Assembly (NCBI RefSeq): GCF_033153115.1
Contig: NW_026889772.1
Coordinates: forward strand, 15,562,001-15,626,000
Direction: 5' to 3'
DNA: 64,000 bases
Source: Saccostrea echinata
Taxonomy: Eukaryota
Shown: positions 49,771 through 55,700 of the stretch, in pieces
Layout of the letters: each line of letters opens with the position of its first letter
How positions within the stretch are numbered: the stretch's first letter is position 1
Program-made: the position numbers and the translations under genes
Notes under the pieces: model-generated
What the model saw: only the letters and a program-made list of their open reading frames with translations
What the model was told of the DNA's origin: nothing
Database searches by the model: none

Positions 49771-52700
49771 ATGGATACACGAATTTCATGTGTACTCATA
49801 CTGTTTAGTTATGGATGTTGTTCTCGTCTTCACCTGACTAATGAGTACGAATTTAAGACTGTATTTCGTGGTGTCCGAGACAGAAATGGATACATTAAAG
49901 CTCGGAATGAAGTGATATTGGCTGAATCTAACATGAGAATTGGCCATGATATTGTTTTAGACAAGACAGAACAGAGAGTTAACGACATACTGATGAAATA
50001 CAAAGAATTAGAAATAAACAAATCAAGAACTATGAATGGAGCACCCTTCCCTCCGAGCATTGATTTTCTGGTCAGTAAACCAATGGTGGAGAAAAGCCAA
50101 GTGTTTCAGATCATAAAATTGATGCCCAAAGGTACGTTAATTTTCTTTGTTCTGCAGCATCATAGAGATTTGATGTACCAGTCTAAATAATATAATATTA
50201 CCACAATATTTCTCACCATCATCGGAGAATATTCGTGTCAACAGACTTGTGAAGAAATCGATTGAGGCCAGTCACAGATTCCGCTAATTGTTGCTTGCAT
50301 GTTACTGATACATAATTATGTAGTGAGCTATCCACTCGTTATATTTCATTGGAATTGATTTAATCGTTGAATTATCTGAATTCATTTTACATGTAGAAAT
50401 CTTTTTTACTCAGTATAACATGCATGAGATAATTTTACCGACACGTAATTTTCCTGTATACCTTATGATTTCCTTATGATTTAAAGGACAATTTTGCTTC
50501 CTGTGCAAGAGCAAGGTCTGCTGCACAGATATTTTATTACAATGCACATATAACTCATTTTAATTTAATATATATAATGTGCATGATATATGACACGACT
50601 TTTCATTCTGAGGCCATAAATTTTAAAACTAAAATATATTAGCACTTTTCACATTCACACCATGCAAACAAACATAAATTGACAAACTCTTTAGAGTTTG
50701 TTTCCTCGATCATTCCAGCTTAAAAATAAGGCTTTTTTCCCTATTCAAGTGATATTTGTACTTTAAGAACATATAATCTTTTCTGGAAATTAAAACTTAA
50801 GTAAATATTGTTTAGTGTCTTATGCCGGATGAATAAGTATATAAAAAAAATGCATATTGCATACAAATTAACCTATAGCCCCCTTGTCGGGGGGAGGGGG
50901 TTATACGGTTTACGGTGGGACAAGTTCTTCAATGCAAATTGTTAACAATTATCAATAAAATACATTAATTATAAATATTGTATATGTGATCTCTAATTAG
51001 CGAATTTTACAAAATACATGAAAGACCTCTTTTTTATTCGTCAGAACACTGTAATTTTTATCTTTCAACACTGCATTTTTTAATTTGTAACATGAAATTT
51101 TTTACACTACCCGTGATTGTACTGAATTAATTCAATTAGAAATACAACAGTTTCTGATCAGTTATCTGTGCATATTTAGTCAATTCTAGACCTGAGATTC
51201 GGCTGGCATAAATGTACAATGACCCTTATTTTTATCGCAATTTCAATGACATAACCTTCCTCGATGTGAGTAATAGTGCCATGAGAAGTCTGCATGTGTT
51301 TGATATTAAATGTCATGTGCTTGAATTCTAAATATCAAAGGTCATTATATAACAGTGTATATCTGATAAGGGAACTAAAAAAATTAACGAGTTTCAACAT
51401 CACTGTCATTTAAATAAAATGAAGTGAAATGTGCTCATCCTGACACAACACTGCGAATCATTGTCGTATTACTATGATACTGTAAGAGGGTAACTATAGT
51501 GATTAAATTCACTGGATTTTTCACACAAAGATGCACTTTACACGAGTTATAACAAGTATCAATCATGGTCTCCACTTCTGTCTCATTCTCCAAAGTTTTC
51601 AGTAAAGGACCATCAATACCTCTGAAGTCAGGGGCTACTCGACTACACATTTAGAGGAATGGAAAATAATCCAGGTCATCATTTTATATTTTTAAAAATT
51701 TCACATTCTCCAGGACTCTTCTTGTCTGGAGTGCATATCTACATGTAGAGGTATACATATTCTATTTACATCAACGGGGCAAGGTATTTAGCTCTTCAAA
51801 GTTTGTCGCTTTAAAAACACCATTGTGCAAATAAATTGTTAATTTCAAAGTAGGTAGTCCTGGGAAATAGATTCAATCCAGCATTTTTTTTTTTTTTTCC
51901 GGAAATAAATATTTTTAAGCACTAGCATTTGAATAAACATTCCCTCCCAATAACATTTCATTCAGTACTATAGATCGCAAAATTTTCGCGACACCTTATT
52001 TTTTGGTATTATTAAGCGAGACAAAATTTTTGCAAATATTGTTTTTTGATCATAATCCTTTATCAGATTATTATACGCCAGAATGGAATTTTGGCAAGCA
52101 GACGGTCTTGCGTAAACTAAATACGCAAAAAATAAAGTTCTCGCATATAAACAGATATTAACAGTTTTTTTTTCAGCACAAAAATACTTAGAATTACGTT
52201 ATTTTCTAATCTATTCCTATATATCAAATCATGAGACTATTTTATATTTGATTTTTTTCTGTTTCTAATGTCAGCGCCGTATTTTTGTCCAGTAAAATTT
52301 ATATAAATATTATTTGTCATGGAATTCACCCATTTTTATGATAAAATGATTCTTCAAAAAAGTTAATATATATATTTGGTATTTGGTATATATTTGGTAA
52401 TAAAAGAAAAGGAGTGGAACTTTGGTGGGTTTTTCCCAGAATAAGACTTTAAGACCATTTGTTTTTGGTTTCAGGAGCGGCGCTTCATCTTCATGATTGT
52501 TCTATGGTGGACCTGAACTGGCTGGTCAAGAATGCAACCTATCGAGAGAACTGTTATATGTGTGTTAACGTCAATTACACCGTGTACTTCAAGTTTTTTG
52601 GTGGTACACCGCCTAGTAACCCAGGTTTGTAGTGGTCAAACTTGGGTACAGCCCACTAATTGTTTTCCCATAGGCGGCAATGTTAACGTTTCTTCACATA

Positions 52701-55700
52701 GCAATGTCCCTAATTTTCGTTCAGCATTGAGTGACCCCTCAAATCAAAGCACATCAAGTTGTCTTTCCTTGGTTAAAATCTCGAGGTGGCATGTCAGATT
52801 CGTTTTCCGGCAAAATGCGTCTGTCTGCGTTAACCTCTGAAAATGAAAGTGAAAGTAGGGGAATTCAAGACTTCTCACTGGTGTTATAATACATAAAATA
52901 ATTCTGCTGATCTTCTTGATAAATTACATCTGCCAAGCTTTTTTGCAAGGGAACATACTCTTTATCAACAAGTATGAGGCTCAGTTTAATACATTATCAC
53001 AGTTTTTTAAATTCAGGTCTGCAAATTAAGGAACTTGTAACTTTTTCTGCACTACTTTCTTCTCCTACCGATTCTAAAAATAATTAGAGGTATGTACCCA
53101 ATATGAAAAAGTATTTTCTGGATTTTACAACATTTTACATTAAACGTCATACTACAGTCTACGTAGTGACATTATGCCAAATTTCAGGAAAATTCAATCA
53201 TTAATAAAGATTTTACAGCATACACAGTTGTATATGCAAAATCCTTTTAAAATGCTTCCATCTAGCCACAACTGCACCCAAATTTGAAGTCATCGGTTAG
53301 CCTATTAATGTACTTATATCATTTTTATTCTCTTTCAGAACTTTAAATACATCAAGCAAAATCATAATCAAGCACTCATATGGGTCCATTTCTCTTATTT
53401 CAAAATATTAATGCATTTTTGCACAAAATTTTATCATCCCTCACCCTTGAATTCATTGTTTCTCCATGACTGACAAAAAAAATTAAGTTTACAAATACCC
53501 CGAAAGTAGTAAAACTAGAAAGTACTCATTATTTCCTGTCCATTGATGTATCATTCAGGAAAATTGGTGTAGGAATAAAAAAGTTATAAGCCTTTACATT
53601 CTTGTATACATTCATCTGTTTCAAAGCAATTTTTACGCCAATGCAAGTTCACTCATCTATGACGTCATAATGACATCATAATAATGGATTGCTTATTACA
53701 CATGTAGTGTTACTTTTCCCGTACTTTTAATTAAAGATGAAATTAGAACTTAAATATTCATTATAACTTTAAAATAATAAAAATACTTACATGAGCAGAT
53801 CAAATAAATAGTCTACAGAAAATGTTTTGTTTCCATGGTAACCATTTTGTAATTTGTAGGAAAATGAATTGCTCATTCTGACTGACAAATATTAAAGAAA
53901 TTTCAACTCTTATATTTTTTAATCTTAATATTTTATCATACACAACACTATGAATGTAATTGTTTTGAAATTCTTTTCAAAATACATTAGCTGTAAAATA
54001 TATAGCATACATGTACATACTAGTTTGATGGTCACTTTCATAGCTCAAATATTCATTTAAAATCTACATTTTCTAAGCTTTAATTACACCTCCCTCCCCC
54101 CCCCCCCCCACACACACACACACATACACACAAAGAAGCTTTAGAAAATTCAACTTACATATTAAAAGTACTGCGGCCATCATTTTACATGTGAAGACTC
54201 GAGATATGTTCAAATGAGTTTGTTTTTACTGACTGATAGTTTTAAACACCATCTGCATGAACCTCGAAGTTGTCCTGTATCACCATGAACCTAAAAAAAA
54301 ATCAATTTAAAAAATGGTACAATAATTTATCAGCACCTAAAGCATTCACAGACAGACAACAAACACACACAATCCTACCACATTACTTTTATGCCCATAA
54401 TTTGATATCAATTGAAAATTATGAATTTGCACTGATTAGTCTCAGCATTGTTAAATTACATGTAAATTAATAATACAGGTAAAAAGCATGTTTACTGACA
54501 ATAATTATACATTAGACAAATACATGTAATGCATTTAATAAAAAAAAATGTATTGTGCATGTTCACGCACACACTGCTTTAAAACTTCTACACAACTGTA
54601 GCCTGACAGACTTCTTTGAAAGAATGCACATGTATGTCCTCGTTCATGTCATTCTATTTCATGAAAATAAATTTTTCATTTACAATTATTGTAATAAGGC
54701 ATGGAAACCTTTTTTTTCTTTACATCTTTCATAAAATGACAAATGCATATCACCTACATACTGCAAGACTCTGCACTAGGTAGCACTAAGCAGTTTTGAT
54801 AACTTACTTGCCACTATACTTTCACTTTGACCTTGAACTTCACTGAATACTGATTCCGACCTCATTTGTGAATTTTTGTGTATTGAAAATAAACAATAGT
54901 GGTGGATGTACTTTTAAAATAATTGTTCCTTTTCTAAATATCTATTAATGGCTCTGAATTAATAAATTGTATAAAATCGATACATTTAATTTACATGCTA
55001 CATGTGTACACAATATGGGCGATATGTGCATAAGCTGTCTGTTCCGGGGGGGGGGGGGGGAGGGGGGGGGAGGAAGTAACAAATCGATTTGTTTCAAAAT
55101 ATGTATAAATAAATTAAAATTTGCTTCTTTCATAAATTTAAACAATTGGAAATGATAGTAAACACCGAGTTCAAAACAAAGTAAAGATCTATGAGAATTT
55201 TCTCTTACCAATAGGCTCAACATATTGGGTACAGCCCACTAATTGTTTTCCCATAGGCGGCAATGTTAACGTTTCTTCACATAGCAATGTCCCTAATTTT
55301 CGTTCAGCATTGAGTGACCCCTCAAATCAAAGCACATCAAGTTGTCTTTCCTTGGTTAAAATCTCGAGGTGGTATGTCAGATTCGTTTTCCGGCAAAATG
55401 CGTCTGTCTGCGTTAACCTCTGAAAATGAAAGTGAAAGTAGGGGAATTCAAGACTTCTCACTGGTGTTATAATACATAAAATAATTCTGCTGATCTTCTT
55501 GATAAATTACATCTGCCAAGCTTTTTTGCAAGGGAACATACTCTTTATCAACAAGTATGAGGCTCAGTTTAATACATTATCACAGTTTTTTAAATTCAGG
55601 TCTGCAAATTAAGGAACTTGTAACTTTTTCTGCACTACTTTCTTCTCCTACCGATTCTAAAAATAATTAGAGGTATGTACCCACTTGCTGTCTCGATGAA

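Follow-up and report, generated by a model that had tools for sequence, protein, structure and literature searches.

KolobokP transposons form a lineage described in 2022, and the architecture discussed here is already published. As set out in the part of that report used here (PMC9587614), members consist of an interior (INT) between a pair of long terminal direct repeats (LTDRs) near 450 or 660 bp, each with its own short TIRs, and a 3–5 bp target duplication is found at the outer ends only. Autonomous members encode a sense DDD/E transposase with a CCHC finger and a C/DxxH motif, and a downstream antisense His-Me nuclease. Solo LTDRs, (LTDR-INT)n-LTDR multimers and INT-INT joints are also described in that part of the report. 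The closest published families are KolobokP-N1_CGi, a non-autonomous element of the Pacific oyster (3,053 bp, LTDR 455 bp, 4-bp duplication), and the autonomous KolobokP-7_CGi (4,333 bp, LTDR 456 bp). For KolobokP-N1_CGi, the same part of the source describes neither splicing nor a target rule. Bacterial composite transposons such as the IS26/IS6 translocatable units, which are mentioned there as well, likewise place an interior between two direct repeats with TIRs of their own, and occur in solo and tandem forms.

The window analysed here comprises 64,000 nucleotides of Saccostrea echinata DNA and contains a 3,039-bp insert that is a non-autonomous KolobokP monomer. Comparison with the published KolobokP sequences (PMC9587614, supplement 3) was made by eye rather than by computed alignment; judged in this way, the repeat is colinear with published LTDRs. 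The insert resembles KolobokP-N1_CGi in size and repeat length, shares with it a 32-nt block of identical repeat sequence and a homologous INT start, and the INT landmarks are colinear by eye (TGACGTCAT motif, CCATGGTAAC, poly-C, CCGGGG run and tip donor). However, divergence is strong in the mid-portion of the repeat and over most of INT, and we therefore place the element in a separate family. It differs from the IS26/IS6 units in that the transposase sits in the interior of a partner element rather than in the repeats, and in having no selectable cargo.

Structure and insertion site

The insert is built from a left LTDR (52644–53099, plus strand), a 2,127-bp INT (53100–55226, plus strand) and a right LTDR (55227–55682, plus strand). 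The initial annotation had reported 456-bp direct repeats with one difference, and 52790/55373 (C/T) is indeed the sole mismatch. Eighteen repeats in the genome are at least 99% identical to the window repeat, all of them in eight paired insertions, six of which each have their own perfect 4-bp duplication. Among these 18 the C/T difference is private to the window copy (C-to-T at nt 147 of the right LTDR), and inheritance from a donor was rejected on this ground. Both repeats have the GGGTACA and TGTACCC ends that had been noted before; the terminal GG..CC reads 5'-RR..YY-3', and the self-TIR is perfect over 7 bp and imperfect over 23 bp (19/23 matching).

The target duplication ACTT is present at the outer ends only (52640–52643 and 55683–55686, plus strand), with AATAT and ATATT as inner flanks. 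A paralogous ADA2-like intron (92% identity over 405 bp) carries a single ACTT at 41901–41904, which bears out the empty site proposed earlier. The host intron measures 3,148 bp with the insert and 105 bp minus it, compared with 107 bp in the paralog. It is preceded by an ADA2/ADGF-like exon (52475–52624, plus strand), whose donor lies 15 nt ahead of the insertion, and followed by an exon at 55773–55839 (plus strand); the exon after that, from 56251, has matches in mollusc ADGF and human ADA2 (E 1e-13 to 2e-10). Solo repeats with their own duplications do exist, but a chance arrangement of two independent 456-bp MITEs, or of a repeat duplicated in assembly, around an interior of host DNA was rejected as the least credible account of the locus: all 3,039 bp are missing from the paralogous intron, and many unlinked loci, with differing duplications, have the same interior between their paired repeats.

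No long ORF was found in the interior by six-frame translation and no transposase or nuclease remnant by tblastn (best E 1.1), in agreement with the earlier claim that both genes are lacking. The element gave no known RNA family or tRNA (a single sub-threshold Rfam match, E 0.62). The idea that the interior is picked-up cargo did not survive: it is an INT common to the whole non-autonomous family, partly homologous to the 5' leader of the partner, and contains an antisense exon.

Family members, target sites and autonomous partner

The first 31 nt of the repeat have 233 exact matches in the genome (control, 0). The family occurs as monomers, multimers, solo repeats and repeat-less INT-INT joints, the last with short losses. 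A genome check suggested by the initial annotation thus recovered solo repeats with their own duplications, paired copies sharing one interior and an autonomous Kolobok partner. Perfect 4-bp duplications flank 38 of the 48 insertions examined; A-N-N-T accounts for 37 of the 38 and TTAA for none. The predicted non-TTAA target stands and can be refined to A-N-N-T, a rule that we did not find for KolobokP in the literature searched. The TTAA-specific duplication of canonical Kolobok elements is absent from this family, as it is from the KolobokP families in the part of the published report used here. Given the A-N-N-T target, adding one flanking base makes the repeats formally read TG...CA; the 4-bp parse is favoured because one solo copy has an AGCA duplication.

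The autonomous partner (L112) is present at two loci, as a 4,333-bp copy at C1:26.11 Mb, flanked by the duplication AAAT, and in pentameric form at C29:18.94 Mb. Its repeat is 94–95% identical to that of the window element (94.7% for the left LTDR); the last 56 nt are identical and the first 31 contain one difference. It encodes an open 685-codon DDE transposase frame in sense (PF20700, E 5e-59), with conserved D, D, DxxH and E and zinc-finger motifs, and a downstream antisense His-Me nuclease (PF05551, E 4e-11). Total length, repeat length and gene order equal those of KolobokP-7_CGi, and the transposase is 66% identical to P0001, the N-terminus of which is, by eye, almost the same as that of KolobokP-7_CGi_1p. 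By the same visual comparison, homology to KolobokP extends to both LTDR and transposase. The window copy differs from KolobokP-7_CGi in having neither gene, like the published non-autonomous families.

From the shared ends we infer that the partner transposase could mobilize the element in trans. The element may still be mobile; neither an empty allele of the site nor an excision appeared in the reads, among which no listed run contained half of the words of the flank. The partner need not be the exact mobilizer; its repeat is 5% off that of the window subfamily. The transposase would bind the TIRs of either repeat and so could mobilize the complete unit or cut out a single repeat, and unequal crossover between repeats would generate multimers and solos.

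A TRIM/LARD-like non-autonomous LTR retroelement, its repeats being LTRs regenerated by reverse transcription, would share the direct repeats, the non-coding interior, the tandem arrays and the solos (these elements are also named in the part of PMC9587614 used here). Private variants are sometimes common to both repeats of one insertion (C12, nt 253; C5:6.14 Mb, nt 35), TG...CA ends appear with the added flanking base, and spliced RNA spans from repeat to repeat, all of which such an origin could accommodate. However, the inner repeat junctions show neither a TGG primer site nor a purine tract, the repeats have self-TIRs, and instead of gag/pol the partner that shares this repeat carries genes for a Kolobok-type DDE transposase and a His-Me nuclease. 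Single repeats are missing at INT-INT joints, which points to single-repeat excision, and the genomic copies retain their introns, the spliced joints having no exact match. We regard a retroelement as very improbable, as had the initial annotation in assigning the element to non-autonomous KolobokP, an assignment upheld by the partner, the described family forms and the colinear repeat. With high confidence we interpret the insert as a young non-autonomous KolobokP transposon with an antisense splice frame that captures host transcripts; an intact partner encoded elsewhere in the genome likely supplied the DDE transposase that placed it in the adenosine-deaminase intron.

Probable antisense splicing and host exons

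On the minus strand, exon A (55209–55419) runs from nt 193 to nt 1 of the right LTDR plus 18 nt of INT and ends at a GT donor kept in 21/21 INT copies. Exon B (54159–54290, minus strand; 132 nt, non-coding) has a canonical AG acceptor and GT donor, both kept in 21/21 aligned INT copies. The antisense exon of the left LTDR (52644–52836, minus strand) has its acceptor at LTDR nt 193. The joint from the tip to exon B (54288–55207, CT..AC ends, in X2, X4 and X5) occurs in 5/6 runs from three studies and the joint from exon B to the LTDR (at 52836, in contigs of X1 and X2, with a loose end in X3) in 4/6 runs from two studies; run X10 has neither. Both joined forms fit minus-strand GT-AG splicing. 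This evidence consists of contigs from runs that are likely RNA but whose type is guessed (no listed run is recorded as RNA, and X3 and X5 are labelled 'DNA?'), and the listed junction letters are those of sister subfamilies, not of the window copy's subfamily. Contigs of X3 and X5 nonetheless end at ADA exon edges. A genomic 340-bp deletion derivative or satellite was rejected as the source of the joints, neither of which has an exact match in the genome.

Two host exons join the acceptor of the repeat. One (66 nt, C5:4.490 Mb) has a GT donor and lies in cis, 4.2 kb upstream of the acceptor of a sister element, with the join present in X2 and X5; for the other (C9:18.497 Mb), the 90 kb downstream contain no copy of the family in this assembly. 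Neither antisense splicing nor host exon joining was found for KolobokP in the literature searched. We suggest that the antisense strand keeps a splice frame, formed by the acceptor at repeat nt 193, the donor at the interior tip and one internal exon, and that host transcripts entering from the antisense side would be captured by it. In the window copy the frame faces away from the ADA gene and is predicted not to trap ADA exons.

This frame is likely the skeleton of the antisense nuclease gene of the partner, which has matching donors around the nuclease frame and an AG directly ahead of the nuclease ATG. By eye, KolobokP-7_CGi has the tip donor but not the AG just ahead of its nuclease ATG. 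A donor follows the nuclease frame in four of six autonomous families (background 3–10% per search window); only three of the six have a clear donor near the tip, and two pass the LTDR-acceptor filter. Descent of exon B from a decayed nuclease exon was unsupported, as 113/300 shuffles score as high against the nuclease exon. A conserved LTDR-encoded C-terminal nuclease tail, predicted for the partner, was dropped: both homologues found are frames in genomic sequence that stop at the edge of the exon, and by eye KolobokP-7_CGi does not retain the frame.

The antisense joints could instead belong to a separate non-coding unit with a regulatory role in the family, such as silencing the transposase promoter in antisense; it would be a 343-nt circle of exons A and B or a concatemer derived from multimers. 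In its favour, exon A occurs on either side of exon B, cover is low past repeat nt 193, the unit has no long ORF or AATAAA, and, judged by eye, both published relatives retain the acceptor and the tip donor. Nevertheless, exon A lacks a stable fold (z +0.8), read-through can explain the RNA since the acceptor receives host exons, and the partner has its matching donors around the nuclease frame. We consider a separate unit unlikely, though worth more weight than a retroelement origin, and favour the relic of the nuclease gene.

Possible repeat exchange and significance for the lineage

The first part of INT (53100–53670, plus strand) is homologous to the 5' non-coding leader of the partner (62% over the first 520 bp), with local scores of 82 and 79 compared with shuffle maxima of 53 and 52. 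Partner and element are thus 95% alike in the repeat but 62% just inside it, and the contrast suggests that repeats have been exchanged. A contrast of this kind between repeat and interior was not found for KolobokP in the literature searched. No closer autonomous donor of INT was present among 13 loci and two decayed relatives, and no repeat swapping was seen among the four non-autonomous subfamilies, for which repeat tree and INT tree agree. Tentatively, and at somewhat less than even odds in our judgement, we propose that the terminal repeat of KolobokP is a portable module with a dual use. Passing between autonomous and non-autonomous lineages of one genome, it would keep an old interior in step with the current transposase, and its conserved antisense exon would make each solo or paired insertion an orientation-dependent gene trap, with concatemeric or circular spliced RNA arising from multimers.

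The element itself is ordinary, because its closest relatives are the published KolobokP-N1_CGi and KolobokP-7_CGi; as a textbook member of the lineage it carries little weight on its own. Its value is as a test system: the donor is young and its empty site known, the genome also contains an intact partner, and the target is a sharp A-N-N-T. This opens the KolobokP models of solo excision, repeat-targeted integration and nuclease-induced unequal crossover to experiment. If the dual-use module is correct, the lineage would here have its first expression data, as well as the first trace of repeat capture in sequence. If both the antisense exon trap and repeat exchange are real, host transcripts could be altered by more than 200 repeats in this genome, and there would be a mechanism for the long persistence of KolobokP interiors that lack genes.

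Insertion and family

The 3,039-bp element (52644-55682) carries two 456-bp long terminal direct repeats, at 52644-53099 and 55227-55682, which differ only at 52790 (C) versus 55373 (T). The target duplication, ACTT, is found only outside the element; in the tandem paralog of the host gene, the 107-bp intron contains ACTT once (41901-41904). The insertion lies 15 nt after a host exon donor and lengthens the ADA intron 30-fold. For a host exon farther downstream, structures of mollusc ADGF and human ADA2 were the matches (E 1e-13 to 2e-10); a Pfam search of short host-exon pieces gave no match. 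The ADA2-like gene is tandemly duplicated in the window (38770-47974 and 49635-61714, 83-97% identity), which also holds tracts of tandem and inverted repeats, none of them related to the element (5489-5984, 30926-32814, 37654-38217 and 61444-62311). The interior (53100-55226) of this copy lacks a long ORF and any trace of the transposase or nuclease, and a comparison with RNA families gave nothing above threshold.

The genome was searched with the repeat, and 40 of 522 candidates were scored. The 18 best matches (at least 99%) correspond to eight paired insertions, one a trimer. The first 31 nt of the repeat have 233 exact genome matches (control, 0), and places were taken for the first 100 of the 233. 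The fetched loci (L-numbers) include monomers, multimers, solo repeats, ends without a repeat, and interior-interior joints at which the repeat is missing and 1-5 bp are lost. Twenty-one aligned copies form four subfamilies, ∼ 2-3% apart in the repeat and 5.5-6.5% in the interior, with agreeing repeat and interior trees. This copy belongs to the youngest, with interiors 0.3-1.3% apart. In the mechanism we propose, single repeats would be excised and unequal crossover would take place.

In L035 (nt 253), L036 (nt 35) and L131, both repeats of the insertion have variants that sister insertions lack, a pattern suggestive of homogenization within an element. Mobile elements are nested in L031 (2843-7572, ∼ 4.7 kb), L034 (3215-3803, 590 bp, long TIRs) and L040 (2527-3259, 730 bp); two of these three hosts are of the youngest subfamily. 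L141 (G000:C2:32.15 Mb) is an inverted junction of two truncated copies with identical flank letters on either side.

Perfect 4-bp duplications were present in 38 of the 48 insertions with both outer ends available. The sample, top hits plus the first 100 listed places, was chosen blind to duplication; L038, L041, L044, L046-L048, L141, L144, L151, L154, L167 and L170, where one end is absent, were left out. The duplication reads A-N-N-T in 37 of 38, a pattern found at 12% of window positions (binomial 3e-33). According to PMC9587614, KolobokP shows no strong preference for a target, although the lists in its Figure S2 show end-base biases at family level. Three of the 48 insertions (L134, L161 and L162) lie at one and the same site in a different repeat family. 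Some ends of L157, L161, L162, L037 and L170 show a further A or T beside the duplication, as do inner repeat-interior junctions, and L170 has an additional ATAT, tandemly repeated, between interior and repeat. Excision or a circular intermediate may have left these extra letters as footprints.

Autonomous partner and proposed repeat exchange

Searches with PF05551 and PF20700 returned many genomic loci where the two genes occur together and in opposite orientation. One autonomous family has this repeat and occupies two places. It is present as a pentamer on C29 and as a 4,333-bp copy at C1:26,109,859-26,114,191, which is flanked by an AAAT duplication and whose repeat is 94.7% identical to ours. 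Its transposase frame is open over 685 codons (PF20700, E 5e-59), and an alignment of 14 proteins shows its D, D, DxxH, E and zinc-finger motifs to be conserved. The frame on the antisense strand encodes a His-Me finger (PF05551, E 4e-11). P0001 is 66% identical to the partner's transposase, and by eye its N-terminus is nearly that of KolobokP-7_CGi. Such a partner would mobilize the element in trans. A 4,000-bp unit of a second autonomous KolobokP family is repeated in tandem (99.6-100% identical) in very long arrays, which fill contigs C79 (61.7 kb) and C122 (49.8 kb), break two others (ends of C12 and C45) and also occur at C29:10.66-10.69 Mb; C52 starts with an array of another family (3,639-bp unit).

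Table S1 of the PMC9587614 supplement lists autonomous KolobokP-7_CGi (4,333 bp, 456-bp repeat) and non-autonomous KolobokP-N1_CGi (3,053 bp, 455-bp repeat). By eye, both repeats are colinear with that of our element, and the N1 interior has landmarks in common with ours along its whole length. These resemblances make an oyster or a related bivalve the probable host.

The first 570 bp of the interior are homologous to the non-coding leader of the partner, with 62% identity across 520 bp and a corrected distance of 0.53, and the adjoining repeats are only 0.055 apart. Among the non-autonomous subfamilies the interior-to-repeat distance ratio is only ∼ 2.4. The remainder of the interior did not align with the partner; one 300-bp bin scored 52 (shuffle maximum 45), at a non-colinear place. 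Repeat-end letters are common to the two oyster families, and interior leaders group by element type (by eye). The simplest reading of these sequences is that an old gene-less interior and an autonomous lineage exchanged or homogenized repeats in this genome. A possible alternative is an unsampled extinct partner; among the other loci tested no closer donor of the interior was found.

Antisense splicing and exon trapping

Splice evidence comes from contigs of six runs, whose type was guessed; they are likely RNA because ADA exon joins appear in them. Joint 1 links the interior tip to 54290 with CT..AC ends (five of six runs, three studies) and joint 2 links 54159 to repeat nt 193 (four of six runs, two studies); neither joined form has an exact match in the genome. 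Read on the minus strand, each joint fits a GT-AG intron and has a clear pyrimidine tract; all 21 of 21 copies keep the three interior splice sites. By eye, the acceptor and the tip donor are also visible in KolobokP-7_CGi and KolobokP-N1_CGi. Contigs are many times deeper over the exons than over skipped parts, although depth is no measure of expression. Neither a long ORF nor a stable fold was found in the spliced unit. The listed junction letters are those of sister subfamilies, so the joints are documented in sister copies only.

Two loose ends were seen at the acceptor. The first maps to a 66-nt host exon, itself a repeated sequence, whose GT donor on C5 lies 4.2 kb upstream of a sister element, and represents an exon trap in cis. 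The second maps to a unique C9 exon with a GT donor and no family copy within 90 kb. Since the splice frame of this copy is antisense to ADA, trapping of ADA exons is not predicted. Run X10, from a third organism, has contigs thousands deep over 55205-55412, which cover the initial 190 nt of the repeat, with neither joint; the repeat exon may be used there with other partners. Near the repeat 3' end, a 42-nt stretch (55624-55665) is present in contigs from three runs, where the sequence on either side of it differs; thus another repeat or transcript shares it.

In the partner sequence, the tip donor and the repeat acceptor of our element recur; in addition, an AG directly precedes the ATG of the nuclease, whose frame ends at a donor. 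These sites predict a nuclease mRNA that runs from right to left repeat. A donor follows the nuclease in four of six autonomous families. Against this model, KolobokP-7_CGi has no AG before the nuclease ATG, and exon B (54159-54290), the antisense internal exon, is unlike the nuclease exon. The splice frame of the element probably derives from a nuclease transcription unit. The nuclease model is termed unconfirmed in PMC13565253. By word search, the main text of PMC9587614 leaves RNA-seq and promoter unmentioned, and among the passages listed 'splic' stands only with regard to group I introns. In the literature searched, with Repbase, Dfam and subscription journals outside its scope, no paper was found that deals with splicing, the trapping of exons or an exchange of repeats in KolobokP. 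The assignment of the element to a known kind of transposon, as a new family member, is well supported, and three side findings on it are of value to transposon specialists.
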